Shown here: one piece after another, positions 1 to 50,466 of the stretch
Numbering within the stretch: position 1 is the stretch's first letter
How the letters are laid out: each line of letters starts with the position of its first letter
NCBI GenBank assembly: GCA_024679065.1
Contig: JAGIQG010000004.1
Span: 54,932,001-54,996,000, forward strand
DNA: 64,000 nucleotides
Direction: 5' to 3'
Source of the DNA: Sphyrna mokarran
Taxonomy: Eukaryota
Notes under the pieces: model-generated
Seen by the model: only the letters and a program-made list of their open reading frames with translations
The model's database searches: none
What the model was told of the DNA's origin: nothing
Made by a program: the position numbers and the translations under genes

Positions 1-1421
1 ACTTTAGTACTGTTTGGAAAGGTACAGTGACATGTTTAAAACAGAACATCCGTTGCACGCGTCTGTTGCTACAATTATATATTAAAACACGCGACGTTAA
101 GTAATGCTGCTATTGAATACTTGATACGTCCACAGTGTGTTGCAATGTTGCTACATTTAGAAACGGTATGTTCGCATTTCGAGAAGATCGAGTGAAATAC
201 GCCCACTGCCAAGTTCCAATCGTCAATACGCCTTGTCAATATTTAGCAAAGTATAAATGTAACTCAAAAAGAAAGTTACAAACCCCCAGCAAATAGTTTA
301 CACTCTATCAGCTTATCCAGATAAACCGCCAACACAGTAATCTTTTACATACCGCGCATACAGTTGTCTCTATTTGAGTTAGCTTAGCATTAAAATTAAT
401 TATACTATTTTGTTTCCATATTGAGCCAACTATTGTTTGTCAGGTAAGAAAATTAAATGTTAGGTAAACAGGAGTATTATGACAGTTGAACAATTGCCTA
501 TTTACTTACATTTTTCAGGATCCATCTCCTTCCGGTTAAATCTTTTATTGTCAGCCTAACTAAACGGATCAAATCCCAGTGGATTAAAAACAAACAATGA
601 ACATGGTTTCTTCCATGGAAGTATTTGAAGAAACAAATAAGACAACAGAGAAGGACGCTGCAGAAGATGCCGACTTTATGGAAGAAGAAAATGACAGTCT
701 AGCACTATAGGAGAATGACGCTTGGATGAAGAATACATGCTGTTTATTGCAAAATGGAATTCGATGCATATGCATAAAAGAGAACTTCGAGTGCTCTGGG
801 GAAAGAATCTGGATGGGAATAATTGGGCAATGCTGTTCAATTGCCAGCACGGGTCAAACGGTCACCTTCTCAGATACAGGATTCCACAATTCGACACAGT
901 GTCATGTGGAAATAGATGTTTGTAAAGCAAGAAACAACTCGAACCTACTTTCAGAAATTGATAGGGAAATCCAAGTATTCAGCTTCAACTGTTTTCTTCC
1001 AGGAGCATCAGCTGAACTGGACGTAATGCACTGGTTCAACGTAATGACGGGACGTATGAATCTACACACAGGTTTTTCTGTGTTACTGAACAAAGTGAAC
1101 ACTGATCATAAATTTGTAAAAGATCCTAGAAAATCGATTTTTTAAAATTTTATTTTACAGATAATTAAGTAACACGGGACACAATGTATCGTTATAGCCA
1201 AAGGAACATAATTGTCATTATTTTTAAAATATATTTATTTTTGACAAGAAAGTTATCTTTTCCAGAAAAAAAATTTCTTAGAATAACCGAGTAGCAAGAT
1301 AATGTATTGCATTATCTGATAGTCATGATGTCGTCCAGTAAAAACACTGTTGGTGCCGGCACAGCAGATGGACGCGATCAGGGTAGACCGTAGGCGTGAA
1401 TTCTGCGTCGAAATTCAATTG

Positions 1422-1586
1422 CTAATCGTTTTCCGCCTCCGTATAGCCAGTCTTTTTTGCCCCATTTTGCTTCGTTCTCCGCAGTTGGGCATATTCAGTG
1501 CACGTTTCTTTAGCTTTGCCTTTGTCTGAGCCGGTCAACGCTACACGTGAGTATATCAGGTCATTACCGACTTTCCTTTGTTGCGT
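1422..1586 (-). CDS. Receptor A exon 7, terminal coding exon with ITIM 2 and ITSM-like motif (TQQRKVGNDLIYSRVALTGSDKGKAKETCTEYAQLRRTKQNGAKKTGYTEAEND*)
   Basis: Acceptor gaccttgcag. The phase-0 frame yields LIYSRV and TEYAQL, with TAG at 1424-1422. Not in the ORF track. Confidence 0.8.
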   Translation of the reverse strand, partial: TQQRKVGNDLIYSRVALTGSDKGKAKETCTEYAQLRRTKQNGAKKTGYTEAEND

Positions 1587-4500
1587 CTGCAAGGTCAATG
1601 TTTAAAAATATTGTTTACTGGTTGCATCACAAGTCCCATAGTCCGTTGTTCAAAAAAAATTCATCAGAAGGGCACGCAGATCATCTTATAACAGCATAGG
1701 GGCAAAGTCAACAGAGACATATTTCCTGCTTTATCGCATGGGTATTGATGTTACACTGGTGTATTTTATTTCTCTGATCGGTTACTCGGCCCCACCTGAG
1801 AATACTCACCTTGTCACTTTTATGCTTTGGAGTTTTGCTCAAATCTAATGCAGCATAATGCACAAATCCAGACGCATTCTCCTGTTTGTGCAAAACGGAA
1901 AACTTTTGTTACGTGGCTTGTTCATTGTGTTCATCAGTTTACACTAATTTTGGTCAAACATTGAGCGGATTAACTTGGAATCCAATAGACGTGCACAAAA
2001 TATGATTAATTTACATTTTCTTAGTGCGAATATTAAGACACTGTACACTTCTCACTCCTATACCAAATATTTAAACCCACCAATTTCACTTGACGTAATT
2101 GTTATGTAAATGTTGAAACGGGCGCCAGCTTCATTACGTACAGGTTATCTCCGATCTGAATGCATAACTGAATTGATGAAAACTTATTAAGTATATTTTC
2201 AACGAGATAAGCCGTTCTCTTTTTTAAACTGTTCTAAACAGTTCATCACTGTTTGACAATAAAACACTCGATGGCAAGTAAATTTCCACATCCGATTGAA
2301 ATGTGGAATCTCATTGAGACAAACCAAGATGCGGAGATGCTGGCGTTGGACTGGGATGGGTTCAGTAAGAAGTCTCACAGCACCAGGTTAACAATTGATC
2401 TGATGCAGGAGCAGTGTCCCGAAACTTCGTGATTCCAAAAACAAAACCTGTTGGAATTTAACCTGCTGTTGTGAGACCTGTTACTGAGACAAAATAATTA
2501 CATTTATTTAATGGGCTTAAAATGGTCTGACGTGATTATATTCACTTTCCATTACATCAATCTTCTCTAGTGTTTCAACAAACTGCCTGTAAAATGAATG
2601 AACTTACCAGTTCCTGACTCCTGTTTCCTTCTGTTACACGTCCGTCTTTACCTAGAAATAATTGAAATTTAATGATATTGAAAGAAAAACGTTCTGAAAA
2701 TGATTCTTACGGACCCGAAATGTTTAGTCTGTGTGCCTCTGCACAGGCGCTATCAGAAGTGTTGTCCAGGATTTTCGGTTTTTCAACTCTTTTTTAACAT
2801 CAGAGATTGCCTCACATCAGAGATGGCCAGAAAAAAAAAGCCCAAGGTAATTTTCAATTTCGCATTGTGCGGAAAATAATTGAAATCCTTACAAGGAACA
2901 GGGTGCTTTAAAATATTTCGCGGAAACTACGGTAATACTACACATTCTACCAGAAATCGGGCAAGTACCGAACATCAACAACAATAATATTGCGTGACTG
3001 AGCAGGCCCGAGGAGCCGTCTGGCCTACTAATGCTACTGTTTTTTATGTAGCACTGTGCAGAACGCTTCCCGGACCACAGCCACGGTTAAATCTAATTGT
3101 AACTCCACCACGGAGCGGTTTGAAAACTTATTTTGTGTCAGAGTGTATTTCATTCATCTGGTTGCAAAAGGAAATGTGTTTGGAAACATCTAGATAATGG
3201 TTTTCATTACTTCTTTCTATGTCCTAAAACATATTTTCAACAATTAGTGCTTCCTCAAAGCTATACAACTCTTTTCAACTTTATCTCCGAACTGTCTTTT
3301 CTATTGCGTTCCCCGGAAACTATCAGTAGTCCCAAAGGTATGTACGAAAATCAAGTGTTATCTTACCTTCATTCTTCAGCATTTGTTTCCGCTTCGCAAT
3401 GACGATCGCAAGCACGAGGAACGACAATGCAACCAGCGCAATCAAATAGTAATGTAATGTCGGGGTATTTTCTGCAAGATTAATTGTAACATGAGGTAAT
3501 ATTGGATACTAAATTAAAAAAGGCTCCAAGACAGTTTATTATGTAAACCATAGTGATGGTTGCACCAACCCCGCAGTGTTCAACGGAAATAGAACGTTTG
3601 ACTAAAAAGCTTGTTTGCAGCTAAGGATCTGCAGTATCTTCTGCCTCGAATATTTGACGCATTATTGATGAATCTACGAAGACTAAAAGGCTGGAGTCAC
3701 ATGTAGGCCAGACCGGGAAAGGGTGACTGATTTCCTTTCCTCAAAGTCATCCGAGAGCCAGATGGGTTTTTGCGATGAATTATAGTTTCATGATACATTA
3801 CTGAAACGAATGTTTAGTTCAGTATTTATTAATTGGTTTTAAATGTCATGATGTGACTTGAACCGATATCCTCACAGCTTTAGCCTGCACGTCTTGAGTA
3901 ATAATCTAGTGGCATTAAAATCTCGCCACTATCTTCCCTTCGAAGTATGCCATTGGAGATAACCGGACAACACCTAAATGATTCACCCTTAACTGCCGCC
4001 TGAAAGGGCCTATCAAGCTACTCCATTTAAGGGCAATTAGGGATAAAGAATAAATATTGGCCTAACGAGCGACGTTCACATTCCATGAAAGAGTTTACTT
4101 CAAAAATACACTGAACCGGATATACAGCGTTTTTACCGGTTGCAGTTTAGATGAGATTTATGAGACTGATTTCAGTTAAACCCATTTTGATCTGTAAGTA
4201 GGATGAGAAGCTGGTCATTTGGTTATTCCAAATCTCTGCACTGAATGGAACCAAACTTATAAAAATATTGAAATCTCACGGCAATCAGCCCTTGCGCAAA
4301 CAACGGGCCTTCAGATCAAAGCAATAGTTTTCAATCAAGAGGGGTTCGCAACGATCAAGTTTAAAGCATTTTCACCAAAATAAACAGAAAGCGAAAAAGA
4401 CTAATAATATTCAGTTAAGAAATATTAAACTAGAAAATTTGGACGAACACTTAGTATTGTTCCGTTAGAAATAGAGCAATTTGAAAGCAGATACGTATGG

Positions 4501-6875
4501 ATTTTTGTTCTTATATGGGATGTGAGCATTGCTGACGAAGCCAGCATTCCCATTCCCAATGCCTCTGAACAGAACGGCCTGCTAGAAAGTTGCAGGGGCA
4601 GTTAAGATTCAACCACGTTGCTCTGGCTCTGAAGTCACATGCAAACCTGGCTGAGTAAGGAGGGACGTCCTTGCCTGAAGGACGTTCGTGAGCCGGATTG
4701 GTTTTTTACCACAATCGATGATAGTTACATGGTCACCATCACTGAGACTAATCTAATACTCGGTAGCTACTAATTGAATTATGTTTCCAGAAGCTGCTCT
4801 TGTGGGATGCGAATCCATATCCTTAGATTGATTACTAGCCTGAGTGCATGCTGGCTATATAAATCGATTTCAACACATTTCATTAAATTCAGTGTAAAGG
4901 CACTTTAATATTTCTGTTGATATTTCCCGTGGCATTTCTGTGATTATTAATATGCATAAAACTTACGAAAAAAAAAACACTATGAATTCTACTGTAGGTT
5001 GCTTTTCTTTTAGAACAGTTTTTCCCCTACCTCGGTTTGGTTTAGGAATCGTGTACACCACAATAGCCGGAGTCTTGAGGGTGACATGAGATACCTGGCA
5101 TGTATAATTGACGCCTCTCGGTACAGGCTGATTCTCAACAAAAGTGCTGGAAACCTCATACAGTCCGTCTCTGTTCTGCACTTTACTGGTGTGTGTTCCT
5201 GATGCAGTTTCGACGCCATTTTTATACCAAGTGAGGGTGTAATTTTCCGGATAAAATGCAGCCGTTTCACAGACGAGGATCAGAGGCGCAGTCGAATTCC
5301 CTTCAGTTACCCTGGAGAAAAGATTCAGTGGGGTTGGGGCAGCTGCGGAACAGAAAATGAACAAAGTACCTGTGCACGGTTTGGAAAAATTAAATATACT
5401 TTTGACGTTCGGTTAATGTCCTCACTCACTGGCAATTCTTATTTCCTGCATTTGAATATTACACACAAGATCAATATACAACTAATCCGTATAAAGACCG
5501 GCATTCGATCAACGACAATCATTTTTGAATTCCCTGTGGGACACAGGGTGAGGTGATTTGTTAATCAACGTTCTGTTAAAGCGGCTAGAGAATTGAATGT
5601 TGATGAGATTGTCTTCTCGCAGAGTTTTTACATACTTTATATACAATGATATGACAGATTGACGAATAATATTCATATTCTTGATGATGAAATAAGCATT
5701 TCAATGCTTCTTTAAAGTCGCATTTGATTGAACAAACTACTTTCAGTTGAATCAGCCGAAGTTTCACCAGCAGAGCGTCTCTTGTTAAATTATAGGCAAA
5801 ATATTGCAGATGCTGCAATCTGAAATAGCCTCTCTGTGTTTATTTATTTATTAGAAAATTAGTGAACTGGCAGCGATGTATGTCTGAAACTCCAATCTGT
5901 TGAGTAAATCGATTTGGTCAAAAGTTAAATATTGAATATTTGAATACGTGCCGTATCGTTCTTTGACATTTACTTTAAGGAATACTGGTATTCATGGACA
6001 ATTAAAACTAAGCCAAAAGCTTTGCATATTTTTCTTGGGAATGGCCCACTAGTATAAAAGATTTTCAGTTAGTTTTACTTTAGGAATTCATTCTGAATGC
6101 CGCCAATATAAATTGACTTTATAGTTGTGATGTGTTTGATAAATATTACTAATATGTTCAGTACTCTCCGAGTGGCATTGCTGGTATAATTTTAACGCTG
6201 AGGACACGAATATACAACTAACATCGCGAAATATGTTAATAGACATGATTTCACTAAGAAAAAGAATGCACATTCCTGATTGTTGTGTTTGATGTATTAT
6301 GGTGATCTCGTTCGCCTGTATTTCAATCTTACCATGTACAATTAGATGCGATCCGGTTCCATTTCGTTGATCTATTCCCCGACGGATCACGGTACAATGG
6401 TAGATTCCAGAGTCTTGCAATTTCACATTTACTAAGCGAAAGAAACCGCTCACTTTATTTTCCACGCCAAAAGTTTTTCTCTTGTCTGGGCTTGAATGCA
6501 GGAATTCACTCTCACCATGTTTCCACCAGAATACCCGTACCCAGGATTGGGATTGAAAAATGGGGAATATACAGTAGAAGGTGATGTTTCCCCCTCTGGA
6601 TACAATCGCTTCGACTGGTGCTTGAGACACACTGAACGAAGTATGGTCCGCAACTGTCAGAAAGATAGACAGACACAGGTTAATTGCAGTAGATACAACA
6701 TAAATGTCGAAAAGTGAAAGCATAATCTAGAGAGAGGAAATAAGGTTCTTTAAATTGATATGAAAACTACTTCCTCGGAAGTTATTAATCAAAGTAACAT
6801 GGCAAGTGAAAAACTAGTACCTGCATGAATAATTCCTCGGAGGACCAAGCATAAAAGTGCTATGATCGTTGTCAT
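1422..6875 (-). CDS. Receptor A: SIRP/NITR-like VJ-C1 Ig-superfamily type I membrane receptor, inhibitory form (357 aa, 7 exons)
   Basis: Manual splice assembly: join(6875-6821, 6653-6333, 5342-5031, 3471-3367, 2651-2608, 1881-1810, 1586-1422). All introns are GT-AG, phases 1,1,1,1,0,0, 1074 nt open to TAG. Signal peptide, V domain, C1 domain, hydrophobic TM and tyrosine motifs VHYAAL, LIYSRV, TEYAQL. Every splice site is conserved in the paralogous copy. No transcript evidence available. Confidence 0.88.
1810..1881 (-). CDS. Receptor A exon 6, cytoplasmic, ITIM 1 (ENASGFVHYAALDLSKTPKHKSDK)
   Basis: Acceptor caaacag, consensus donor AAG|GTGAGT, 72 nt, phase 0-0. Confidence 0.82.
2327..2486. 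mobile_element. Short fold-back element derived from Penelope-like terminal repeats (intron 5 of receptor A)
   Basis: 29-nt imperfect inverted repeats at 2363-2391 and 2458-2486. The right arm resembles the terminus of the Penelope remnant at 37870-37958. Degenerate hammerhead core CTGATGC...GAAA. Confidence 0.6.
2608..2651 (-). CDS. Receptor A exon 5, cytoplasmic spacer (GKDGRVTEGNRSQEL)
   Basis: Acceptor tttctag, donor G|GTAAGT, 44 nt, phase 1->0. Same length in copy B. Confidence 0.78.
3367..3471 (-). CDS. Receptor A exon 4, transmembrane (ENTPTLHYYLIALVALSFLVLAIVIAKRKQMLKNE), uncharged
   Basis: Acceptor cttgcag, donor G|GTAAGA, 105 nt, hydrophobic stretch followed by KRK stop-transfer. 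Confidence 0.88.
3690..3937 (-). mobile_element. Deu-domain (SacSINE1-like) SINE fragment
   Basis: Reverse complement of the element at 12450-12802 (ctggagtcacatgtaggccagacc...ccagatgggtttt). Confidence 0.7.
4512..4855 (-). mobile_element. Deu-domain (SacSINE1-like) SINE
   Basis: gggcagttaagattcaaccac...ctgaagtcacatg...gtgagccggattggtttttt, same family as 12450-12802. Confidence 0.7.
5031..5342 (-). CDS. Receptor A exon 3, C1-set Ig domain
   Basis: Acceptor ttccgcag, donor G|GTAGG, 312 nt. Motifs LVCETAAFYP, LTWYKNG, NRDGLYEVSS, YTCQVSH. Lies within ORF 4963..5364. Confidence 0.95.
6333..6653 (-). CDS. Receptor A exon 2, V-set Ig domain with J-like G strand
   Basis: Acceptor tttctgacag, donor G|GTAAG, 321 nt. 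Motifs ITFYC, VFWW, QDSGIYHC, NGTGSHLIV. Lies within ORF 6088..6723. Confidence 0.95.
6821..6875 (-). CDS. Receptor A exon 1, signal peptide MTTIIALLCLVLRGIIHA
   Basis: ATG at 6875, hydrophobic core, 55 nt ending in phase-1 donor G|GTACTA. Confidence 0.85.
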
Positions 6876-6879
6876 GATT

Positions 6880-7030
6880 TGCAAGGCTTCCAACTGTTGC
6901 CTCTGTGCTAACTGCGAACTTACAACTTTTTAAAATAGCTTGCTGTTCGTGTTCCTTCAGATTCGTCACAGCCAGGATGTTGATACATCACTTTCAACAT
7001 CCGGAAAGTGAGGTTTCAAAAACTACGCTT
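6880..7030 (-). promoter_or_regulatory. Putative proximal promoter of receptor A
   Basis: TATA-like TATTTTAAAAA about 55 nt upstream of the ATG. Overlapping ETS-like ACATCCGGAAAGTG at ~6997-7010 and GAAAGTGA IRF-like half sites. Largely conserved in copy B. Motif-level evidence only. Confidence 0.4.
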
Positions 7031-9527
7031 CCATTTTTAAGTGAGATTTTCTAATTTTTGCAACTACTTAGTTTCCTGGAATTACATATTTTACTGGCAG
7101 CACAAAGTAAGGGGAATATACATTTTCTAACACTGAATTTATGAACACTCTCCGAGTTGGTTTCTTTCCTGACAGGTAATGAACGAAAATAAATTGAGAA
7201 TACGCACCATTGTCATATTCAGACCTACTGTAAATAGGGACAGTTGTCTGGCTGTTTTTATATTGTACAACAGGTGGAGAGACATGATCTGAGAGCTGAC
7301 AACATGTGCACTATCTTCAGTGAGACCAGAAGGTTGGGAATATGTTGCTATTTTTAAGGAGAGCACAGTCGAATATGAGCTTTTTGAAGAGGATTGACGA
7401 CAATGGTATCCATGGGCATAAAGTCATCAAATAAGTCGACTGTTAGCATGTTAGCGGTGACCGGGACTGAAAAAGTGGGCGACAAGTTGTTCATTCGCAC
7501 GTAAACTTTGGCAGAGAAAATGGTTCTTAGATAATACGTGTTTAAAGTGTGTTTGGGGAAAAACACGAGAGGTTTCTGCGTTACAGAGTTTCTCGGTTAT
7601 GGTAGGATGCGGAGTAGCAATTTGGTTCGCTAGATAAATGGAAAAGAAGGGAGCTGTAGAAATCATTGGCTGGAAGATAATTTGATGACAAAGGATTCCT
7701 TGAACGTTTTGTAATATTCGCTAAGCGAGGAAGCTTGAGAGATTTAAGCAGAATGTTTTGGTTTGGGGGTAGGGAGGGTGAATGTGTAGAGTGGTGGGTT
7801 GTTTGAGATGAGCGTGGCAGTCGCGGTGCAGGCGAACAAAAAATTACTTATTGTTGCTCTCCAGAACAATTATCCAATAATGAGCAGTTGTGGCTGTGAA
7901 CGGTGAGACTTTGGGAAGCTTCTCTTGATTTAACCAGATGAAGCTTTGGATGGTTAGACCCGTTGTTTGTAAGAGCTAGTCAATCCTTTTGGAATTGAGG
8001 ATGCGAAGGTTAATGTTACACCAATATTACAGTAAGCATCCGAGAACGTGAGGCATTTAGTTTGACTACCTGCGCTTACTCTTTATATCCTTTCTTTTGT
8101 CAACAGAATTCCAAATTATTTCATTCGCGGAGTGCACTGTTTCCAATCTGTATCCCAGAAAGACATTTTGCTACAAAGCTGTATAATCTGTTCGCCATCA
8201 CAGGAATTGCCTTGTATGTTATTGTCACATGCTTCCTCTCAAAGTAATTTTTTGGATACAATTATTCAACCAGAGAGCATGCTTCATACTCAATGGTGTC
8301 TCATGCCCAGCTTAGTCGATTACGAGTTGGATGCTCACTCCGGAGGCTTCAACAGTTAATCTGAACTGCAAAATATTGCTTTGCTCGCCGAATGCTACAA
8401 TATTAGAGGTGTCGCATTTCAGATGAGGTGTTCTGTAACCGCAGCTGCTTCGTAAAACGACCTTTCCTTCTCCAGACCTTGCTTCCTGTTTTCTTTCACC
8501 TTTCTATGTAACGTTTGCACTTCGATGTGAATTGGGCCACATCGAAGATTAACTACTGCTATGGAGAGAACATCAAGATGAATGATGAAAAACGAGATAA
8601 AAATTGCACAGCCACCTGAGAGAGCCAACCGTCTTGATGTGAAGATGAGTTCGGAAATGGGAGAGATTGTGCCAGTTTCATGGAATTCAGTTATTCAGTT
8701 GGGTAGGAGACGCTGAGAACATTCTTTTTAGAACAGAAACAAGGAAGAATAAATGTGATAAAAATTTTTAAAACTATGAGTAGCTTTACAGAACTAAATG
8801 GAGAAATTGTTTCTCGGATTTGTAAGGTAAACACGCACATCTGTGATGATTATAAAGCAGTCAGAGGTGAGAAATATTTATGGGCTCTGCACTATAATCC
8901 CTTTTATTCCTTCAGGGATGTTGATGTCGTAGGAAAGATCACCATTTGTTACTCATCCCGAATTGCCCTATCAGAGCACAATCAAGAATCAACTATTTTG
9001 TTGTAGATCTGAAATCACAAAGGAGCCCTGTTAAGTATTGAATTCCATCACATTAAAACAAGTTGCAGGAGATAATGCTGGGGAAGAGAGAAAATATATA
9101 TGTTTATGTAAAACCGAGTTTCCGCGGAACTTTGAAGCTGCTGTCCTGCATTTGTATGGTACGGGAGCATTTTGATTTGTGCTGATGTGGATCGAGTATT
9201 ATATCTTAACAAAATGGATGTTTTGAGCAACAAATCACTAACCAGTACGAAAAAGCAAAATATATCCCCAAGCCGTGGCTTGACCAAATAAAAAGTCTTG
9301 ACCAATTGAAATGCACAATTATTACATTGAACAATATGAAGAGAAATACGGGGATGTCTAACAATAACAGGCCACAGAAAATTCGGAGCTAAACGCGAAC
9401 ATTCAAAAGTGAATAAAAGTGGACTTTTATAAGAAAACAATTACCAAATATATTGATAGAATACCAACACTTAATAGCAAATGTTCAAGTCAAATCGATA
9501 TGCATTAGCAGGACAAGCGAAATGGTG

Positions 9528-10940
9528 TCCTGTCACTAGTGGAGTGCCACAAGGCTCAGTACTAGGTCCTCTTCTATTTGTGGTCTACATAAACGACTTG
9601 GAAGTAGGGGTAGGTGGTGAGATCAGCAAATTTGCTGATGACACCAAGATGCTTGGATTGGCGGGTACAGAAGAGCAGTGTCAGGCAATACAACAGGACA
9701 TAGACAGGTTGGTAGACTGGGCAGATAGATGGCAAATGGAATTTAATCCGGAAAAATGCGAGGTGATGCATTTTGGCCGGAAAAATGTAGAAGAGAATTA
9801 TAGGATAAAAGGTAAAACTATACGGAGCATAGAGACGCAGAGAGACTTGGGGGTGCAGGTTCACAAGTCTCTGAAGGTGTCCTCACAGGTGGAGAAGGTG
9901 ATAAAGAAGGCGTATAGTATGTTAGCTTTCATAGAAAAGGGTATAGAATACAAGAGTAGGAGTTTGATGTTGCAGTTGTATACAACTTTGGTTAGGCCTC
10001 ACTTGGAATACTGCGCCCAGTTCTGGTCTCCGTACTATCGGAAGGATGTGGAGTCCTTGGAGAGAGTGCAGAGGAGGTTTACCAGGATGCTGCCTGGTAT
10101 GGAAGGACTGTCCTATGAGGAACGATTAGATAGACTGGGGTTGTTTTCCCTTGAAAGACGTCGGCTTAGAGGGGATCTCATAGAGGTGTATAAGATTATA
10201 AGGGGTATAGATAGAGTAAATGGAGGTAAACTTTTTCCACCTTTAGAAATGGATAGGACGAGGGGTCATGGCCATAGGGTGAGGGGGGCTATGTATAGGA
10301 CGAATATTAGAGGGCAGTTTTTCACACAAAGGGTAGTGGGGGTGTGGAATGCACTGCCGAGTAAGGTGGTGGGAGCAGGCACGCTGGGGCTGTTTAAGGG
10401 TCTCTTGGACAGCCACATGAGCGGTATGCAGATAGAGGGATATATTAGGACTGTTTAACTACGGCTTTTTTCCACAGGTAATTCGGTCCATAATTTTGAG
10501 CATGCATTCGGCAGGTGGTGCGGGTACAGCTCTTGGATGTTGATTCATGGGTTGCCTGGTACCTCATGTCGTAAATGAGTGCTTTATGTGGACCATCTGA
10601 AGGGCACCATGACAGCTCAGAGACTATCGATGTGGCTGTGCAGACACTTGGAATTGGGCCGGTGTCTGCGGGAGTTTGCGCGTTCTCCCCGTGGTTGCGT
10701 GGGTTTTCTCCGGGCACTCCGGTTTCCTCCCACAACCCAAAAATTCGCTCTTAGGCTGATTGGGTAACAAATTGTCCCTATGGTGAAAATTTTCCATATT
10801 AGGAATAATATATATATTATTATATAGGAATATTAAAATAGGATAATGTATTTGCTACTATTTGGTATGACGGCGGCGCGGGCTCGTTGGGCCGAAGGGC
10901 CTGTTTCCCGTGCTGTGTTGCTTAATAAAAAAAAAATAAT
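9528..10940 (+). mobile_element. Young 5'-truncated CR1-clade LINE with an uninterrupted RT C-terminal ORF, a V-SINE-derived 3' UTR and a 7-bp TSD
   Basis: ORF to TAA at 10458 with [36 protein letters not shown] aatggtg at 9521-9527 and 10941-10947. A-rich tail. Empty site in copy B at ~53413. Confidence 0.95.
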
Positions 10941-11310
10941 AATGGTGCTAACATTATCTTGATGTTCTTTATAACTTTCCAGTCAATTGTCCTTTCTGGA
11001 CTTTAAAAGCTTAATTAAAGCATATGGTTCAATACCTAAGTCTGGTGCAAAAACATATTAATTTTGTTTATCGCGCGACATTTGCAGAAGCAACTAATTC
11101 AGCGCGTTCCGATTTTCGGAAGTTGACAGAATTTTGCAACAGGCAGTTTTTTTTTGCATTCTCGGTATTCCCGATTTCTATATTTTTTTCTGCAAATTAC
11201 TGTTAGTTTCATAATCATTGGTATAATTAGACTATCCTTTTATATTTGGATTAATGTGTTTTGAAGAGCTTTTTGCTCAAATTGATGAAGCCATTTATCA
11301 AAAGCAATTC

Positions 11311-11516
11311 CAGAATTATTGGAAACCAGACAGTTTAGTTCAGGAGACAGCCTTAATTGTGGGACAATTAACAAAAGCAAAACCAGAATTATTGGAAACA
11401 AGAGAAATTCGTTCAGAAGACAGTCTTAATTGTGCAACAATTAGCAAAAGAAAAACCAGAGTTATTAGAAACGAGACAGGTTAGTTCAGTAGACAGACTT
11501 AATTGTGAGACAATTA
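11311..11516 (+). repeat. 73-bp tandem repeat, about 2.8 diverged units
   Basis: Units start cagaattattggaaac at 11311 and 11384, with a diverged third start (cagagttattagaaac) at 11457. Confidence 0.9.
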
Positions 11517-12449
11517 AGGAATAATTAATTCATTAATAGAAATGCTAGGAATACCGCAAGTGTAATTTGGAAAAGAAAAATGTTATAATTATGAACAAAT
11601 CATTAACAGCTGCTAATTAATACAGTTTCTTAAAGTGCTGTGGGGAGAAAAATCTAGTGTACTTCTCAGGCCGCCGAGTAAAAAGAGATAATATGACTTC
11701 TTAATCTTATCTCGAAAGAATGAATAGGCACTTGATTAATGAGATGTTGAAAATGTGGGTAGTGAGGGAGAGACAGAGCTTTTGATGAATAAGCGTTGAA
11801 AGTTATTTTCTAAGTTTTTCGGAGTCGTCACTTCAGAACGTCGCCTTTGAAGGTGACACGAAATTTCTTCGATTGTTAAAGATAAGCTCTCTCCTCTTAT
11901 TACTATCAACGAATAGCATATTGCTATTAATTAGTACTTTGCCTTTTATCTTTCTGACGTTTTACCTTTTTCATAGTTAATAAACATGTTGTACTCGCCA
12001 TTTAGAGTGACCTTACTTCTGATATAGTTAAGTCGGTGGATTCTGATGCAATTTTTAAATGGGTGGTAATTGCAAACAAGTGATCCCCACAAATCTTAGA
12101 TCAGATAAATAACAAAAAATGTAATACTGCCTCTGCATGAAGAAGATTCCGAAGGGTACAGGAGACATCGCTTCACTCCGGACTGATTAAGAATTGCGTT
12201 GCCTTTTCCTAAAAGGCTTTGAAATAAGTTTAGTTTGAAGTCTCAACACATATATACTTCGTGTGATATCATTTATTTTATATTGTAGTCGAGAACAGCT
12301 TGCACAATATCTCTAAGCATTAGACCGTTGATTAGGCTACTTGGTGATTGCTGTTCCCACAACCATCCTGTTGTTTATTAAAAATGCTGTTAAAATCAAA
12401 GCATGTTGTGTTGATCGCTTTGGCAATAGACTAGCAAAATTGATAGTGT

Positions 12450-12802
12450 AGGCAATGGCCTAGTGGCATTATTCCTGGATTATTTATTCAGAAACTCAGT
12501 TGATGTTCTGGGGATCGGGGTTCGAATCTCGTCACGGCAGCTGGTGGACTTTGAATTCAATAAAACTTATCTGCAATTCAGAATCCTCTCATAGCTATTG
12601 CCGATTATTGGAAGACCCATCTGTTTCACTAATGCCCTGTGAGGAAGGAAATCTGCCGACCCTATCCGGACTGATCTAGATGTGACTCCAGAACCACAGC
12701 CATGTGGTTGACTCGCAACTGCTCTCTGAACGAGGGCATCTCGGCCTCGGCAATAAATGCTAGCCAGCCAGCAACTGGCTGTCGTAGGAATTAATAAAAA
12801 AA
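12450..12802 (+). mobile_element. tRNA-headed Deu-domain SINE (SacSINE1-like), near full length
   Basis: A box tggcctagtgg, B box ggttcgaatc, core cccatctgtttcactaatgccc...ggaaggaaatctgcc...atgtgactccag, A-rich tail. Confidence 0.8.
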
Positions 12803-14384
12803 ATTCTCTCGTCATTGTGCCATTCCGCTCCATAGTAGACATTAACTATAAGAAATAGAATGGTTCTGTGCGTCCACCTATGGACACAAAAGGACACGTA
12901 GTCGTGTTGTAATAATTTAAAAACTATTTAACGCAATCACAAATCGGGGTCTGGTGAATTGAAAGAAACAAGCATGGTTTATATCATATTCTCCTTGACA
13001 TACCTTATCTGCGAGATCTTCCTCTCCCTTTCCTGGTAGTTCTCGGGACCGCATGGTAGATATTATGCTGTTATTGCGGCTGACATGTCAAAAGTAATTA
13101 CATAAATTATTCTTTGTTTTTTTAAAACAAAGATGTTTATTTTTATTCACAATTGAGAAATTGAATAGGATGCATAGATATAGCTGAATGTAGAATCACA
13201 GACACATTTTATATCTTTACTGTGACCAAAGTCTACCCAAAGAACTAAACAATTAAAACAGGCATGAAAACAAAACCCAACCAAAATGGGAAAGATGTAA
13301 AGTGCACAGGGGCCTTAAACTGTTTAAATTTAAACACCATGGGCCTACTTAGAAATTAAATTACTACAACGTAACACGGCATTTCTAACTTTTGAGAGGT
13401 ACCCATTAATTGTTCCCCAGTAGACAATACCACTTCTTTTCGCGTTGTTTACGTTTCAATCAGGTAGACTTAATTTAGGTATGAAATAAATGCAGTGCAT
13501 CTCTGCCTCGCCTAATGCGTGGCGATAACTACATGTACTTTGAGTTCGGCTTTCTAATGACTCTTTGTTAACCTAATGCCTAATCCTACGTAACGAGGTG
13601 AGCCCAGATTTTGTGTCTCGAATGTATACGTGATGTTTTCAAACAAATGCACAATCCACTTTGGACATTATAATTACAGTTTTGGGAATGACGAGCTGAT
13701 CCCGAGATTCGTTTTTAGTTTTCACAAAATATGTATATTTCAAGTGACTCCTGATATCGGAACTACCGCCATTGCCGTCAGACGTGGAATAAAATTCAGC
13801 ATGAATCTCATTGTGGTCATAGCGTACTATGCTTCTCATCAGTGTTACTGGGAACTCGCTAATGTTTTCAGAGTAACAGGCTCTATATTAATGTTTTAGA
13901 TCCCGAGACCATGAAAAGATAGCTCAACTCGACGCAACATTTTTAAACATTCTGAAAGTTTCGAGGTTCCAGCGTTGTTGGAGTAGTGCTTAACCTCATT
14001 CCATTCTGAACATGCAAGTGTTCCGTTGGAGTATTGTTCTTTCAAAACTTGTTAGAAATGCCATGGAGACTTTCCATGTTTAATAAAACTGATGTGGTGC
14101 GGTTTCTCCCAAATAATCCACGTTACACGTTTGGGCTTTGTTTCACTATACCGGTTATTTCTTCTACGAACCAACGCGAGTAATACTTCCAGCAGTTCTA
14201 GTTATAGATGTTTTGTTTCTTATGGGCTGTTACGATTTTCCAGTGAGCAATTTAAATGTCAATCATGGAACAGTTGACAACAGTTCCACAGTGATTCAGA
14301 AAGTTTTTAGTTCAAGCCGTACAGTATAGTTCTGAAGGAACGATTCATAGTTGTGTCTGTTGCCTTTCGGACGCAGCTTCATAC

Positions 14385-14705
14385 TAAGGCCCCGCCTGCT
14401 GGAAGTCGCTCGAAAAGAATTCCTAAACATGATGTGCTTCACCTCCCTTGCCCTGTGGAACGCAGGTGGTGGGAATGCCAGGAAAGAAGTGGCAAAGTCA
14501 ATCAAAAGTGAAAGTAGATAACCATTTGGGCCTGCAGCTTATGCACCTCGTGGAAAGCATGACAAACGCTGCTCTCATCATTACGCACCGGGCTGGGTAC
14601 AACGTCAAGCGCACCGCCCTCAGCAAGGTCCGTCACTTGAGGAAAGTCAGTTCAAGGAAATTGGCGGTAGTGACGTAATCCGTGTATGGAAATAAAGAAC
14701 GGTAC
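14385..14705. promoter_or_regulatory. Candidate enhancer/promoter-like motif cluster, present only in copy A
   Basis: CpG-enriched unique DNA with CCCCGCC, GGAAGT (14401), AAAAGTGAAAGT (14504-14515, IRF/PRDM1-type), TGACGTAA (14671) and TGGAAA. Motif-level evidence only. Confidence 0.3.
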
Positions 14706-14740
14706 GCCGCCAGGATGCACTTCTGGATTCTAAACTATCT

Positions 14741-15252
14741 TGGTTTCCTTATCTGAGGAAGGATGGCTTGCTATAGACGGAATACATCGAAGGTTTACCA
14801 GGCTGATCCCTAGGATGGTAGATTCATGAGGAGAGGTTAAGTTGCATAGGATTATATTCACTAAGAAGAGTGAGATGGGATCTCAGAGAAACCTATACAA
14901 TTCTAACAGGGTTAGGCAGGGTAGCTTCAGAAAGAATGTTCCAAATGGTGACGGCGTTCAGAACGAGGGGCCGTAGTTGTAGGATGATGGTAAATTTTCC
15001 AGAACTGAGCTGAGACAGAATTTTTTCATCCAGAGAGCGGCGAATGTGTAGTATTCACTAGCACAGAAGATAGATGAGGTCAAAACCTTCTCTGATCTCG
15101 AGGAGAAATTTCAGACAGCTCTGAGGCCTAAAGGAATCGAGGATATGAGGGAAGTTGGGTTCAGGATATCGAATTCGATGATCTGCCATGATCAAAATGA
15201 ATGAAGGAGCAAGCTCGAATGGCATACTTCTGCTTCTGGTTTTTATGCTTCT
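14741..15252 (+). mobile_element. Decayed CR1 LINE 3' fragment
   Basis: Remnant RRFTRLIP/GDL.ETY coding pattern and CR1-type tail. Copy B retains only its 3' part (56391-56685). Confidence 0.75.
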
Positions 15253-15489
15253 ACCTTATCAGTAAATTGACTGACATTTCCAAGGGCGTTAATGGTTGTC
15301 TATTGGCGCTTAAAATTCCTGCATGACAGCAAACAAGTAACTTCCATCGATGTTTCCACTCTCGCATAACCAACTCTGATGAAGCTACCAGGATATTATA
15401 CTTCTTGCTTATTGCTATTCCAAAATAAGTTTATCATTCTTTCTTGGTACGCTTCAGGGGTTGAGCAGATCGACGGGCAGGGAACGTTT

Positions 15490-16370
15490 AATCGAAGAAG
15501 ACGGTCATTTGCAACGTAAATTGTTTCTTCTTGCTGAAGGCACCTGCTGAAAATCGTTCGGAATCATCAAGTTTTCCGCCTCTCTGATCACAAAGTGCTG
15601 TCTTATTTGCACCCTGCTCCTTGCATTAACATCTACTCCTCTAGGTCACAAATAATTGCTTGCAACGAATGACCACCGTTTTCCGCATCCATTAGATGCC
15701 CCAAGATCGTATTTCGCGATTTCATGTTTGTTGATGACAGTGCACGAACTGCCAGATCCGATCTTGACACCCATCGTAGATGCGCATATACTCTATCGCA
15801 CGTGACGATGTTGGTCTTATGATCAGCATAAGGAAAACCGAAGCAACGTATCAGCTTGTTCCAGCGAAACTCTATCTCAAGTTCGGTAGTCCACAGTGGT
15901 TCAATTATCTTGACTGCACTCTCCCTCGCTGCCCCCGCTCCCTTCGTTTTCGATTATACAAAACGCCTGCAAGAATTGTAAAAGCACTTCTGTAACCATT
16001 AAAACACCACGAACAGCAGTCATGTTATGAAGACGAGCAGTCTGAAATTCTATGGAGCAATGATCCTCTCTCTGCAGGCCTTGGCGCTGGAAATTGTACC
16101 TCCACCATGCCAAAAAGTTCGACGGCTTTAACTTGAGTTATATTCGGAAGCTTCTGAAGATTGGATAGTCATGCAATATACCAGAGAGTGATTGGTTGAC
16201 CCGAGTTTGTATATGTCAAACATCCGCACAACAGAAGTCACAACTGAATTAAGTCGATCTGATTGCCAGAACGCCTAATACTCGTTCATCGAAGTTAATC
16301 TTCTATGGAGATCTTGAGTAAATGGATTCCCACAGTCAAAGGAACAGCTACTAGGACATTCCGAAGACTT
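15490..16370. mobile_element. Decayed RTE-clade LINE fragments (endonuclease-like piece on -, RT C-terminal piece on +)
   Basis: GLMISIRKTEATYQ and FNYLDCTL on +. The paralog shows IAKYGLGASN and ENLMILN on - (ORF 56921..57394). Confidence 0.55.
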
Positions 16371-16477
16371 TGGCACATTTTATGATAGGCTCTAACATTC
16401 TCCCAATAACAAAAAGTAAGTAAATTAACAAACTAACCTTACTGACTGGACTTGTCCCACGAGTATCTGAAAACTTC

Positions 16478-17505
16478 GACGGCTCCTCAGGGGGAAGTAG
16501 TAAATATCAGCATACCTTTCCTTTGATAAGAGGACCAAAACTGTTCTTAGTATTCCTCTTGTTGTCTGCCTGGTGATTTGTATACTTTTAGCCAGACTTC
16601 CCTTCTTCACGCATATTTAAAATAAAAATGAACAATCCATTTGCCTTGTCAATTACTTCCTGAACATTCAGGCAAGCTTTTTGTGATTTATGCCCAAGGA
16701 CACCCAAATCCCTCTGAGTTGCAGCTTTCTGCAGCCATTCTTCATTTAGACAACATTTGGGTGCTTTATTCTTCCGGCTAACGTGCATAAATTAACATCC
16801 TTCTACATTGTGCTCCAAATTTTTGGCCCACTGACTTAAGCTATCTGTATCCTCTGTACACTATTTATGTCATCCACAACACTTGTCTTTCCATCTGTTT
16901 TGTGTCATTAGCAAATCTGATAATAGTACAATTACTTTGCTCATCCATGTCACTGATATATATTGTAAATAATTGTGGTCCCAGCACTGATCCTTGTGAC
17001 ACTCCACCAGTTATATGTTACTATCATGAAAATGTCCCTCTTATTCCAAATCACTATCTTCCCGTAGGTCACGAATCCTCTATCCATGCTCATACACTTA
17101 CCCGACACAATGGAACCTTATATGAAATAGCATTATGTGCAGTATCTTATCGATTTTTTTTGTAAATTCAAGTATACTACATATAATGGTTCCTCTTAAT
17201 TAATTCTGCTCAAAGAATTGTAATTAATTTTTCAGGAATATTTTCCCCTTCACAAAGTCAAAACTGACTCTGCTTTCTTATGTTATTCATCCCTAAACCC
17301 TCTGCTAAAACATATTTTATGATAGGCTCTAACATTGTCCCAGTAACAAATATTAAGCTAACTAACTTATACTCATCTGATTTTCTTCTCTTTCCTTTTA
17401 GAATGGTGTTTTATTTGCAGTTTTTCCATCCTCAGGGAATTTTCCAGGAGCGTAAGAATCTTGGAAACTTAGAACCAATGCACTTACTGTTCTGTCGTTA
17501 CTTCC
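16478..17505 (-). mobile_element. Old CR1 LINE RT fragment
   Basis: QRDLGVL remnant and gtgtcacaaggatcagtgctgggaccacaa (VSQGSVLGPQ) on -. Confidence 0.75.
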
Positions 17506-18359
17506 TTTAATGTCTATTTCCCTTCAAGGGCTTCGGCCGCTGGCAGGCAACGCCTCCGTTCCCCAATTAATTTCTCCTTTGCCCCACAACTTATTTGTCA
17601 GAACGAATGGTTAGCACATTCATACTGCAGTGTGAAATCGATGCTCTTTCCCACGCTTTGTCACAATTGAAGTTAAGTTCGCAACAGTATACTTCTAGTT
17701 GGGTCAATCAAGGTTACACCTACGCTCCTCTTCCATATCAAAAATCAATCTACTTTGTTCTTAAATAAAAAATAAATTCTATGCTCACTCTTATCGTAGG
17801 ACCGCATTGCGTGGTTCTTTTGTGCGTCAGCATAATGCTTATAATGCATCATTTAATAATTTGACTGTTAATTTCTGTAGTTGTGAGCACTCAGTATATG
17901 GCGAACAGTTGAGGTGGAAAACATTAATGGAAAGCACGGAATGAGAGTAATGGTGAATGTATCGTCAGCCTTAATGTAATGACGTGGCGAATGGGGATAA
18001 ACGGCTTACACGGCTGCCTCTATGAGAAGGATAAATTGCTTCTGCCGTCATTTTAAGGCATCTTAAGAGGAACGAGCTTGTGAGTGAGTGGCGTTTTTCC
18101 ATGGCATTTTTACAAACGGTTATTAACTTCGGTAATATGAGTGTACTTGCACATGTTTCTTGGTCTAGAGCATCTGCTCAACCCCTTTCAGGGATAAGGA
18201 GAAAACGTTGAGCCCATTATAATCGTCATTTTTCAATTCTATTGTCCCGGTTTGTGTTACCACGACAATACACGAGTAACACGCTGGAGTGTACTGCAGG
18301 GCTTCCTCGCATTTACTGAACAGGGTTGAATGTTGAATCTTGAACTTTGTGAGCAAAGA

Positions 18360-19180
18360 ATCGTGGAATCATACATTGAAGAGGCCCTGCTGCCCATTGA
18401 GCCTGCACCTGAATTACCTGAACTCCCACCTAATCTCATCAGTCGGCACTTGATCCATAGCCCTGAATGCTATGACGTGCCAACCGTTCATCCAGGTGCA
18501 TTTTAAAGTACGTGAAGCAACCTGCCTTGCCACCCTCCCAGGCAGTGCATTCCAAGTCGTCACTATCCTCTGGGTAAAAAAAACCTTTCCTCACATCCCC
18601 CCTAAATATCCTGCCCCTCATCTTGAACCTATGTCTTCTTGTGACTGACCCTTCAACTAACGGGAACAGCTGATCTCCACCCATTTTGTCCATGCCCTTC
18701 ATTATCCTGTACATCTCAATTAAGTCGCCCCTCCGTCATCTCTGCTCCAACGAAAATAATCGAAGCCTGTCCATCCTCCTTCATAACGTAAATGTTGCAT
18801 TTCAGGCAGCATTCTAGTGAATCTCCTCTGCACCCCCTCGAGTGAAATCAAATCTTCCTGTATTGGTGACCAGAACTGCACACAGTACTCTAGCTGTGGT
18901 CTCATCAAAATTCTATGCAACTCTCAGATCACTTTCCTGTTTTTGTAATCTATGCCTCGATTGATAAAGGCAACTGTCCCATTTCAATTTTCACCACCTT
19001 ACAAATATGCCCTTCCTGAGAATAAACACGGCAAAGTTCCTTCGTTCCACAGAACTTCCTGGCGTCGACCATTCATCAAATGTTTCCTTATCAAATTATT
19101 CTATCTAATGTGTATTCCCTTACACTTTTCAGGGTTAAATTCCATCTGCCACTTACCTGCCCATTTGATAATTCCATCTA
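18360..19180 (-). mobile_element. CR1 LINE 3' fragment
   Basis: RPQLEYCVQFWSP, VQRRFTRMLP and QLFPLVEGSVTRRHRFK in ORFs 18720..18920 and 18439..18714. Confidence 0.88.
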
Positions 19181-19188
19181 TGTACGTG

Positions 19189-20370
19189 AATGGACGAAGG
19201 TAGATCAGTTGATGTCATATACATGGATTTTAGTAAGGCGTTTGATAAGGTTCCCCATGGTAGGCTCATGAAGAAGATAAGGATATGTGGGATAGAAGGA
19301 AATTTGGCCGATTGGATAAGTAACTGGCTGTATCATAGAAGACAGAGGGTGGTGGAAGGAAATTTTTCAGAGAGGAGGCCAGTTACTAGCAGTGTAACAC
19401 AAGGGTCAGTGCTGGGTCCTCTGCTATTTGTGACTTGGAAGAAGGGGCTGAAGGGCGGGTTAGTAAATTTCCTGACGGTACCAGATCGGTGGAGTAGTGG
19501 ATGATGTGGAGGTTTCTTGCAGGCTGCAAAGATACATTGATAGGATGCAGAGCTGGGCTGAAAAGTGGCAGAAGGAGTTTAACTCTGATAGATGTGAAGT
19601 GATTTATTTCGCTAGGACAAACTTGAATGCAGATTACAGGATCAAGGGCAGAATTCTAAAGAATGTGGAGGAACAAAGAGATCTTGGGGTTCATATCCAC
19701 AGATCTCTGACGATTGCCACTCAAGTGGATAGAGCTGTGAAGAAGGGTTTTAGTATATTAGCATTTATTAATAAGGGCTTTGAGTTTAAGAGCCATGGGA
19801 TTATGCTGCAACTACACTGGATGTTGGTAGGACCACGTTTGGAATATTGTGTTCAGATCTGGTCACCTCATATAAAAACGATGTGGAAACATTGGAGAAA
19901 GTGCAGAGGAGATTTACCAGAATGCTGCCTGGTTTGGAGTGTAGGGCTTTTGAGGAAAGGTTGGGGGAGCTGTGGCTTTTGCCTTTGGAACGGAGGAGGA
20001 TGAGAGCCGACTTAATAGAGGTTTATAAGATGATGAGAGGGATTGATAGAGTGGACGTGCAGAGACGATTTGCTCGGGTGGATGTAACTGTTAATCGGGA
20101 GCATGACTATAAGGTTCATGGTGGGAGGTTTAGGAAGGATGTTCGAGGTAGACTCTTTACTCAGATAGTGGTTGGGGTGTGGAATAGACTGCCTGCTGTG
20201 ATAGTGGAGACGGACTCTTTAGGAACTTTCAAGCAATTATTGGATAGGCACATAGAGCACACCACAATAATAGAGGATAACTGCATCTTGGGATTGGACA
20301 TAACTTGGCATAACACTGAGGGCCGAAGAGCCTGTACTGTGCTGTAATCTTCTATGTTCTATGTTCTATA
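19189..20370 (+). mobile_element. CR1 LINE RT fragment, frameshifted
   Basis: [47 protein letters not shown]. Tail gggccgaagagcctgtactgtgctgt followed by (tatgttc)n. Confidence 0.92.
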
Positions 20371-20379
20371 TCTTCTTAT

Positions 20380-26253: not shown

Positions 26254-26596
26254 CAGAGTTGAGAAAAATGAGCAGCACGAGAGCACTGCATTTAGAAAAT
26301 TGCTGTCTCCTTCCCACCGCTTATACTACTTTTAATTCTACTACCCTGTTATCATCTGAAAAAAATTACACGTCAGCAAATAAATCAATCTATGGTAGAA
26401 GAAAATTAATGAATTTACTTCAACTCAAACAGAGTTGAGAAAAATGAGCAGCACGAGAGCAGTGCATTTAGAAAATTGCTGTCTCCTTCCCACCGCCTAT
26501 ACTACTTTTAATTCTACTAACCTGTTATCATCTGAAAAAAATTACACGTCGGCAAATAAATCAATCTATGGCAGAAGAAAATTAATGAATTTACTT
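26254..26596 (+). repeat. 176-bp direct tandem duplication, 2 copies
   Basis: cagagttgagaaaaatg at 26254 and 26430, about 5 mismatches. Confidence 0.95.
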
Positions 26597-37958: not shown

Positions 37959-38019
37959 TTTCAATTCCATGAAGGTGTTATTTGATACTTTTCGCCATAT
38001 AAACCTCTGAAGCACGTTT

Positions 38020-42790: not shown

Positions 42791-42911
42791 AAGCAAGGTC
42801 TTCAAATGGAAGTCCCTTGCCTGTATCTTTACTAATTGGATGACAACATGATGTAGTGGATTTTTTTTTGTAAAACTTTTCCGTCATCATTTCCATCTCC
42901 AAATGTACGAT

Positions 42912-43804
42912 ATATAGTTGGAGGATAAGATTCAGCTTAATAAAGACCATTCCTCACCAAGTGCCCAGAATTTGTTTAAAGTTGACTTTTATGGCTGATT
43001 TTGGCAATGTGCTGAAGCTGTAATTTCTGAGTCACTGAGATCAGTGTTACAGTATTTTAGTATATAGAAAAATGCAATACGTATGGGAAATTTAAACTTA
43101 ACTTTCCTACATCTTGTGTAATCATTAGTAAGAAAAGGACAGACAATGTGTGCAGGAATAAGCCTTCGATCATGTAAAGGAATTAATTAAATAATTAAAT
43201 GCCAATACACGAAACAGTTACATTTTACCGTGGTAACGATAGTGCTGTTTAGAAAGGTGCAGTAACATGATTAAAACGGGACATCCGTTGCACGTGTGTG
43301 TCGCTATAATTATACATTGAAACACACGATGTAAAATAACTGCTGCTTTTGAATACTTGATACATCCAGTGTGTTGCAATGTTGCTACATTTAGAAATGA
43401 TACGTTCGCATTTCGAGAAGACCGAGAGAAATACGTCCCCTGCCAAGTTCCAATCGTTAGTACGCCTTGTCAATATTTAGCAACGTATAGGTGTAGCTCA
43501 AAGCAGAAAGTTACAAACCCCCAGCAAATAGTTTACACGCTATCAGCTTATCCAGATAAACGGCCACACATTGTCTGTCCTTTTCTTACTAATGATTGCA
43601 CAAGATTTAGGAAAGTTAACTTTAAATTTCCCATACGTATTGCACTTTTCTATATGCTAAAATACTGCAATACTGATCCAGTGACTCAGAAATTACAGCT
43701 TCAGCACATTGTCCAAAATCAGCCATAAAAGCCAACTTCAAAGAAATTCTGGGCACTTGGTGAGGAATGCCCCTTATTAAGCTGATTTTATCCTCCTACT
43801 ATAT
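42912..43804. repeat. ~240-bp inverted repeat (arms 42912-43152 and 43565-43804, spacer ~410 bp)
   Basis: aagaaaaggacagacaatgtgtg versus cacacattgtctgtccttttctt, and cattcctcaccaagtgcccagaattt versus aaattctgggcacttggtgaggaatg. Confidence 0.95.
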
Positions 43805-50462: not shown

Positions 50463-50466
50463 GATT

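Follow-up and report, generated by a model that had tools for sequence, protein, structure and literature searches.

What has kept two neighbouring copies of a receptor gene almost identical in the exons for their ectodomains, while those for their transmembrane (TM) and cytoplasmic parts have diverged? We addressed this question in a 64,000-nt stretch of the Sphyrna mokarran genome (GCA_024679065.1, JAGIQG010000004.1, positions 54,932,001 to 54,996,000, forward strand), hereafter the window, to which all coordinates refer. BLAST self-alignment revealed a direct-orientation segmental duplication interrupted by copy-specific insertions, with copy A at 5-21985 (its extent being limited to the window) and copy B at 43240-64000, continuing past the window end. 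Each copy harbours a seven-exon gene on the minus strand, with GT-AG intron ends, that encodes a leader, two immunoglobulin (Ig) domains, a TM segment and three tail exons. Pfam identified the Ig exons as V-set (3.9e-08) and C1-set (5e-13). We consider it fairly likely that A and B form a tandem VJ-C1-TM pair of an inhibitory and an activating receptor, and that their ectodomain exons have been re-copied by repeated ectopic gene conversion, which would keep ligand binding the same.

The contrast is apparent exon by exon. The V exon (exon 2; A 6333-6653, B 49920-50240), an unsplit VJ-type domain, differs between the copies at 3/321 nt, two of them synonymous, and thus at a single residue. The C1 exon (exon 3; A 5031-5342, B 48595-48906) differs at 7/312 nt, again with two synonymous changes, and at four residues. 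Both domains together differ at 5 of 211 residues, and the proportion of nonsynonymous differences (pN) in V is 0.004. The leader exon (exon 1; A 6821-6875, B 50408-50462) has 3/55 differences. In contrast, the TM exon (exon 4; A 3367-3471, B 46918-47028) differs at 18/102 nt in addition to one 9-nt and one 3-nt indel, and exon 5, the membrane-proximal tail (A 2608-2651, B 46058-46101), at 9/44. An earlier note on this DNA had given the same counts for the V, C1, TM and fifth exons, and its value of ~16% for the first ~115 nt of the window also proved accurate (18/111, 16.2%). These 115 nt are 3' flank, with no exon match by tblastn of relatives.

Penalised segmentation of the 19,104 aligned bases, with segment counts reproduced by an independent global aligner, gave divergences of 14.4% (5-4765), 4.8% (4766-7096), 8.2% (7097-17202), 0.5% (17203-17402) and 10.5% (17403-21981). 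The profile is thus far from flat; a flat one had been named in the earlier note as fatal to its proposal of gene conversion. The best breakpoint, at 4771 (range 4764-4788), is a step from 14.4% to 4.8% and forms the 3' boundary of a homogenised block; it lies ~260 bp downstream of C1 and borders on a high-copy repeat. On the B side, this boundary (~48330) likewise lies at the repeat edge, with a depth of ~11,000 at 48117-48317. The block itself, 4766-7096 in A and ~48330-50680 in B, comprises the C1, V and leader exons and adjoining intron. Over the whole alignment, each of the two Ig exons overlaps one of the two longest identical runs: 222 bp at 6467-6688 (5' part of the V exon and its acceptor) and 179 bp at 5016-5194 (3' part of the C1 exon and its donor). 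A run of 222 bp was reached in 0 of 2000 permutations (mean 79-88), and the two runs exceed all permutations of the 5' block.

Homogenisation also extends to positions that do not alter the protein. Synonymous differences in V and C1 amount to 4 of ~149 sites (2.7%), against 9% upstream (P = 0.002), as the earlier note had claimed, and the synonymous divergence of these exons lies below that of the introns. Non-coding differences are fewer inside 4770-7200 (107/1737) than upstream (1075/12000; P = 7e-05). The earlier claim that flanking intron and promoter are homogenised thus stands for 4770-5030 (10/258, 3.9%), intron 1 (7/167) and 6876-7200 (20/325), but not for the middle of the V-C1 intron, where 5601-6000 has 37/399 differences (9.3%). 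Similarly, the contrast that it drew between the ectodomain exons and everything around them holds at the sharp step at 4771 and is overstated upstream. There, a non-coding patch at 17203-17402 (B ~59340-59550) has 1/200 differences, a similarity like that of V, and two others are also low (11780-12030, 8/251; 13150-13420, 11/271). These three patches, at 0.5-4% in a background of 9%, are located 5-10 kb upstream of the gene; they are either conversion tracts of young age or regulatory elements that have been conserved. The unhomogenised mid-intron and the similar upstream patches indicate a mosaic of ages rather than a single exon-limited tract.

A profile with one sharp boundary might also have arisen if one unequal crossover or long exchange had replaced everything 5' of 4771 in one copy, at an age corresponding to ~9%, leaving B chimeric, and if purifying selection on exons and on splice and promoter DNA made the extra dip to 1-5%. 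All 15 kb upstream are indeed 9.0% diverged compared with 14.3% for the 3' part, divergence between species is also lower in C1 and intron 2, and conversion and recombination are inseparable in such data according to the authors of a study of mammalian paired receptors (PMC3210942). However, the synonymous sites and the intron at 4770-5030 are well under 9%, V is not slow between species or in a third paralog described below, and the two identical runs surpass every permutation of the 5' block. Given these low values and long runs, a single crossover needs a later layer of short tracts. We regard this scenario as unlikely, and conversion seems a better description than unequal crossover plus shorter tracts.

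Selection was weighed with the help of other species. In a first protein search, 6 of 6 matches were shark proteins with automatic names (SIRP-like, CD276-like or uncharacterised), the closest being from Mustelus asterias (77% in V). A and B differ from each other at 1/107 V residues and from Mustelus at 24/107 (A) and 25/107 (B) (Fisher P = 2e-07); for C1, the values are 4/104 between the copies and 13/104 to Mustelus (P = 0.04). For the TM segment with exons 5 and 7, by contrast, the copies are as far apart (25/82) as they are from Mustelus (22/101 and 20/84; P = 0.38). The V (100/99) and C1 (100/98) protein trees join A and B as starred sisters. The tree of the TM segment and exons 5 and 7 has 1 of 10 branches starred, with unsettled bootstraps, and distances were used in its place. 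Thus, of the per-exon trees that the earlier note had called for, here built from proteins, those of V and C1 group the copies by species as anticipated; for the signalling part, the answer comes from distances, which indicate, together with 3'-part contigs from another species (X3), that it is older than the speciation. For those contigs, seven listed pieces with denominators estimated from piece lengths, X3 is closer to B over the 3' part (257/2620) than A is (387/2583; P = 1.5e-08).

The third paralog, C, belongs to the same genome and lies outside the window; it is represented by contigs from run X1 that align to 46974-47913 and 49728-50612. Over leader to V, C differs from B at 99/866 positions (11%) and A from B at 36/883 (P = 6e-09), while in intron 3 the two comparisons agree (110/921 and 124/928; P = 0.36). 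Copy C is 11-12% from B in both regions alike, and has escaped homogenisation. One leader-exon letter, at 50413, is common to B and C by depth and missing from A and three relatives; it reflects either homoplasy or a small B-C exchange. There is also a distant paralog, D, on a 7.3-kb contig (X1 record 6, aligned to 48630-48931 and 49916-50291), with a 573-nt V-C1 intron; it is present in X3 and X4 too.

Could the profile have formed without any exchange, by a single duplication after which the ectodomain was under strong purifying selection and the TM segment and tail evolved fast? The very low pN of V and the lower interspecies divergence around C1 would fit. However, introns and 3' flank are 13-19% diverged between A and B, above the distance of B to another species; V differs from Mustelus at 23% of residues, paralog C is 11% from B over V, and synonymous sites are homogenised. 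We consider this explanation very improbable, and the domain-by-domain comparison with Mustelus has already largely refuted it. The earlier argument that purifying selection alone would not suffice is borne out by the same data. Constraint contributes, but judging from these comparisons exchange between A and B after the divergence of their tails is needed. The sites at which B and the relatives differ agree with this: of 40 listed sites, we dropped 11 and kept the 29 at which the other letter is fixed in three relatives; A has B's letter at 0/19 of those kept in the 3' part and at 4/10 in the 5' part (P = 0.009).

An artefact of assembly, with the V and C1 consensus collapsed or two alleles placed in tandem, is the least credible of the explanations considered. 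We examined read-derived contigs of run X1 rather than long reads; of the contigs, 32 pieces were listed, and of the 1603 variant rows, 40 chosen by support. X1, which contains 0.87 of the sampled words, is possibly the source sample, and among the listed contigs none covers the whole stretch. Nevertheless, three contigs are identical to B (45301-45818, 518 bp; 45913-47289, 1377 bp; 47268-47913, 646 bp) and take in its TM Arg and exon-6 deletion, described below, and another differs from B at 86/662 positions, the exact count of A there. Of the 14 sites listed, seven are identical in A and B, and at six of these the reference letter has a depth of 27-29; at six of the seven that distinguish the copies, its depth is 14-18. 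Copies C and D are also at ~15, which suggests that 15 is the depth of a single locus and that A and B are not alleles; three copies at ~15 each are impossible for the alleles of one diploid locus. With both copies at single-copy depth and common stretches at double depth, there is no collapse of the V exons, a possibility raised in the earlier note. A non-flat profile, low synonymous divergence in V and C1 and the lack of collapse together support its interpretation of gene conversion.

The nature of the two receptors was deduced from their signalling exons; the tyrosine motifs, TM Arg and frameshift described here go beyond the earlier note. The A open reading frame has 357 aa. Its TM segment is devoid of charge and has a 9-nt deletion relative to B and Mustelus. 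[quoted passage not shown] The B TM segment harbours an Arg (codon 46994-46996) where Mustelus has Pro, and a 3-nt deletion relative to A and Mustelus. The Arg is 17 residues before the cytoplasmic boundary (-17) and the Mustelus Pro at -18; the deletion thus puts the new Arg at the commonest register of the family (-17, 9/12). Exon 6 of B (45293-45356) is 8 nt shorter than that of A, and the resulting frameshift leads to a stop at 45305-45303 that ends the protein at 298 aa, before any tyrosine motif. Relative to B, an X3 contig over this exon shows 8 gap letters, consistent with the deletion being the derived state. The B frame is open and its splice sites intact from the leader through exon 6. 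The stop lies 10 nt upstream of the last junction, and under the 50-nt rule of nonsense-mediated decay the transcript should escape degradation. Exon 7 of B (44963-45070) is open as far as TDYAQL, then has a premature stop, and has lost a Tyr; its translation, giving 316 aa, would require skipping of exon 6. Its constraint is weak (pN 0.129, proportion of synonymous differences, pS, 0.189; pN/pS ~0.7), and B-specific changes outnumber A-specific ones relative to Mustelus. [quoted passage not shown] The locus combines near-identical neighbouring ectodomains, a member with ITIMs and an uncharged TM segment and, provided exon 6 is spliced in, a member with a charged TM segment and no ITIM, which strengthens the analogy with paired receptors drawn in the earlier note.

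Several observations weigh against this reading. Exchange was not confined to the ectodomain, as the V-like non-coding patches upstream demonstrate. In C1 and intron 2, X3 differs from B at 94/1338 positions (7.0%) and A from B at 77/1315, which is not significantly lower (P = 0.24); X3 and B are also closer there than 3' of it (9.8%), so the dip is partly intrinsic. The four derived sites shared by A and B are all within 70 bp, and come from the support-selected 40 of 1603 rows. The stretch of 2 kb after the B exon-7 stop (43000-44965, minus strand) contains no AATAAA or ATTAAA, whereas A has four such signals (1239, 1154, 748 and 549). A survey did not find the FcR-gamma chain in shark genomes (PMC4016189). 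The relatives compared below are predicted gene models whose short tails are perhaps incomplete, and the Mustelus model omits exon 6, so that B might skip its frameshift and retain an ITIM.

If so, B would be a dual-signal receptor reminiscent of KIR2DL4, with a TM Arg, an ITIM and an ITSM-like motif, and the pair would differ in the strength of their signals rather than in their sign. Exons 5 and 7 of B do join in frame, yielding 316 aa with LIYSRV and TDYAQL, by the splice that the Mustelus model uses, and the premature stop is found just past the last motif. Both splice sites of B exon 6 are nevertheless kept, and the excess of B-specific changes in exon 7 and its pN/pS of ~0.7 argue against this possibility; we find a dual role doubtful, more so than the crossover scenario. 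About as unlikely as that scenario, in our view, is neutral conversion, in which B would be decaying or a decoy, its Arg incidental, and the ectodomain tracts would survive since similar sequence converts more often. The equally young non-coding tracts upstream, the frameshift, stop and Tyr loss in the B tail, the missing canonical polyadenylation signal after exon 7 and the survey of shark genomes that did not find an FcR-gamma chain as adaptor all suit this idea. It accounts less well for a frame that is still open, and splice sites that are still intact, from the leader to exon 6, for an Arg at the family register (-17 or -18 in 11 of 12 Arg-bearing relatives, 12 positions scanned) and for the coincidence of the 222-bp and 179-bp identical runs, the longest two, with the V and C1 exons.

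Our preferred account, of an inhibitory and an activating receptor matched by conversion, supposes that B signals at all and that the tracts persist owing to selection for matched ligand binding. The star-like distances of the TM segment and tail suggest that an inhibitory ancestor was duplicated at about the time when the lineage parted from that of Mustelus. B would then have switched by the Pro-to-Arg change, the 3-nt TM deletion that moved the register from -18 to -17 and the exon-6 frameshift, and later by the exon-7 stop. Non-allelic exchange would have affected the 5' part several times, leaving ~9% divergence upstream, 4-6% near the exons and <1% in the youngest tracts, most recently in V and C1. 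Tracts reaching into the TM segment and tail would abolish the opposite signalling and were for this reason probably eliminated, after which growing divergence is likely to have prevented more exchange in that part. The ligand is likely fast-evolving or mimicked by a pathogen.

A and B belong to a VJ-C1-TM family found throughout the chondrichthyans under automatic names only, as far as predicted gene models, taken here as 50%-identity representatives, can tell. A profile search returned 91 representatives at E up to 1e-30. Of these, 20 were checked by name; every one is a chimaera, shark or ray protein, and members of the same species among them sit together on one chromosome-size contig. The V domain includes a J-like GxG in the same exon, and across 46 sequences the conservation of both G149 and G151 is 90% or more. 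For the TM screen, 83 proteins were reduced to 58 by dropping 3 longer than 520 aa, 7 devoid of a C1 anchor and 15 devoid of a called TM segment. The TM segment is uncharged in 32 proteins with tyrosine motifs and in 14 without, and contains Arg in 12, whose tails are of 8-56 residues; Arg and a short tail are associated (P = 0.008).

In a C1 tree with 43 rows, namely those of 29 among the 32 inhibitory-type proteins, 11 of the 12 Arg-type ones, P0003 (judged by eye), A and B, the 13 Arg-TM rows never group. The tree implies 13 label changes, at least 7 of them forced by starred branches, against a shuffled mean of 11.3. The apparent repetition of the Arg-TM pattern among relatives is a lead. 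A second candidate pair occurs in Heptranchias, where P0007 has an ITIM tail and P0022 an Arg TM segment; their C1 domains are 13/102 apart and starred sisters. One type of Arg TM segment, ending in an acidic residue and His, is present in P0018, P0022, P0050, P0069, P0070, P0074 and P0093, from chimaera to several shark orders and on unrelated C1 branches. This common segment hints at an ancient activating exon that changes ectodomains. A broader proposition, which we judge could equally well be right or wrong, is that cartilaginous fish from chimaeras to rays possess a clustered and undescribed family of paired receptors of their own, built on unrearranged VJ-C1, that its activating Arg-TM members have repeatedly obtained ectodomains from the inhibitory genes beside them and that this locus displays a de novo inhibitory-to-activating switch with ongoing ectodomain conversion. 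If true, an arms race of the KIR/Siglec type would date to the base of jawed vertebrates, and an Arg-pairing ITAM adaptor is predicted in sharks. In the open literature, with subscription journals mostly outside its scope, we found no description of this VJ-C1 family or of restricted homogenisation of paired receptors in cartilaginous fish.

The remainder of the window was also surveyed, and it contains no flanking genes. In tblastn searches with 23 relatives, each copy had one C1 exon and no further exon, and with the same relatives and three Arg-type TM segments, no further family exon or second TM exon was found in 22000-43236; an Rfam scan gave 0 matches. Copy-specific insertions are located at 13881-14946, 43571-43802, 52564-52893 and 57818-58546, and 43565-43813 is an inverted copy of 42903-43152 (91.6%). 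An insertion present in A only (9528-10940) contains an uninterrupted frame of 326 codons (9478-10458), which we take to resemble the end of a CR1-type reverse transcriptase. Decayed elements similar to this insertion are found at 19206-20368, 38019-39195 and 61352-62402. A 73-bp x3 tandem array is common to both copies (11295-11517 and 53764-53986), and the spacer contains a 176-bp tandem duplication (26254-26596).

How does this locus compare with known systems? Siglec-16 has a TM Lys and uses DAP12, as does SIRP-beta1, and SIRPs have two C1 domains after their V domain. Like SIRPs, the shark genes start with VJ-C1, with the J-like GxG in the N-terminal V exon, and the inhibitory-type ones have an ITIM tail; many relatives were also named SIRP automatically by NCBI. 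By sequence profile, UrIg2, SIRP-alpha/gamma and antibody chains rank highest, SIRP-alpha and SIRP-gamma being among the best non-antibody PDB matches. Having one C1 domain rather than two, and an Arg in the outer TM segment rather than Lys, the shark genes were not filed as SIRPs. The structure predicted for the Mustelus ortholog (predicted local distance difference test 77) has its best Z score, 16.8, with B7-H6 (root-mean-square deviation 4.5, 193 aligned), tied with several unrelated two-Ig proteins. In two fold searches, the matches were all of a generic Ig kind; neither had SIRP in its best 50 rows, which excludes nothing. Membership of the leukocyte receptor complex group (LILR, KIR) was also rejected, as its Ig domains are of the C2 type and those of the shark genes V-set plus C1-set by Pfam.

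Among genes of cartilaginous fish, UrIg2 is similarly an unsplit VJ-C1 shark gene, with conversion among its C domains (PMC12227049), and is the top PDB match of alignment A1. However, it has nine C1 domains, and the similarity is weak (E 3e-18, a generic V-C1 stretch). The skate MDIR family likewise comprises activating and inhibitory members, but they are CD300/TREM-like (PMC3031540). Excerpts of PMC10751288 and PMC11599192 mention other VJ or ITIM genes, not the shark VJ-C1-TM family. As for the adaptor, the best 20 of 60 literature matches for shark FCER1G, TYROBP and CD247 included no shark paper, and term searches of PMC3964593 and PMC6795676 did not settle it in the text available. If B signals, the pair would offer a direct handle on the shark adaptor for Arg-type receptors and on the ligand of an unrearranged VJ-C1 receptor.

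From its sequence, the locus would work like a paired receptor of the SIGLEC, LILR or SIRP kind, all testable sequence features of which it presents. In primates, gene conversion has homogenised the ligand-binding exons of the inhibitory and activating neighbours SIGLEC11 and SIGLEC16 in each lineage (PMC5701461). The shark genes share this arrangement and the homogenised ectodomain exons, but they are VJ-C1 receptors rather than sialic-acid lectins, are in tandem direct orientation and have Arg in the outer TM segment rather than a central Lys. The 'merohomogenization' of the KLRC, KLRI, KLRB, Ly49 and PIR pairs in rodents and primates similarly involves the ligand-binding exons only, with signalling exons that predate speciation (PMC3210942); in the shark, C1, leader and upstream DNA are affected as well. 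Activating KIR and Ly49 receptors arose from inhibitory homologues that acquired a charge in the TM segment and lost the ITIM tail (PMC2213150), as proposed for B, although B uses Arg instead of Lys and a frameshift instead of a stop in the first ITIM. A short tail combined with a TM Arg, opposed to an ITIM tail, is also the configuration of LILRA, which pair with FcR-gamma, and of inhibitory LILR (PMC10679719), whose domains are of the C2 type. The CEACAM paired receptors of Xenopus are another non-mammalian case of a converted exon, the N exon, with few synonymous changes (PMC5112662); unlike the shark genes, they activate by a built-in ITAM, are in opposite orientations and have conversion confined to the exon. 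Restricted homogenisation of paired receptors is thus known from mammals and Xenopus, and the shark pair is a further instance of this phenomenon. If B signals, sharks would run the same pathogen-driven cycle of switching and re-matching, on an antigen-receptor-like scaffold.

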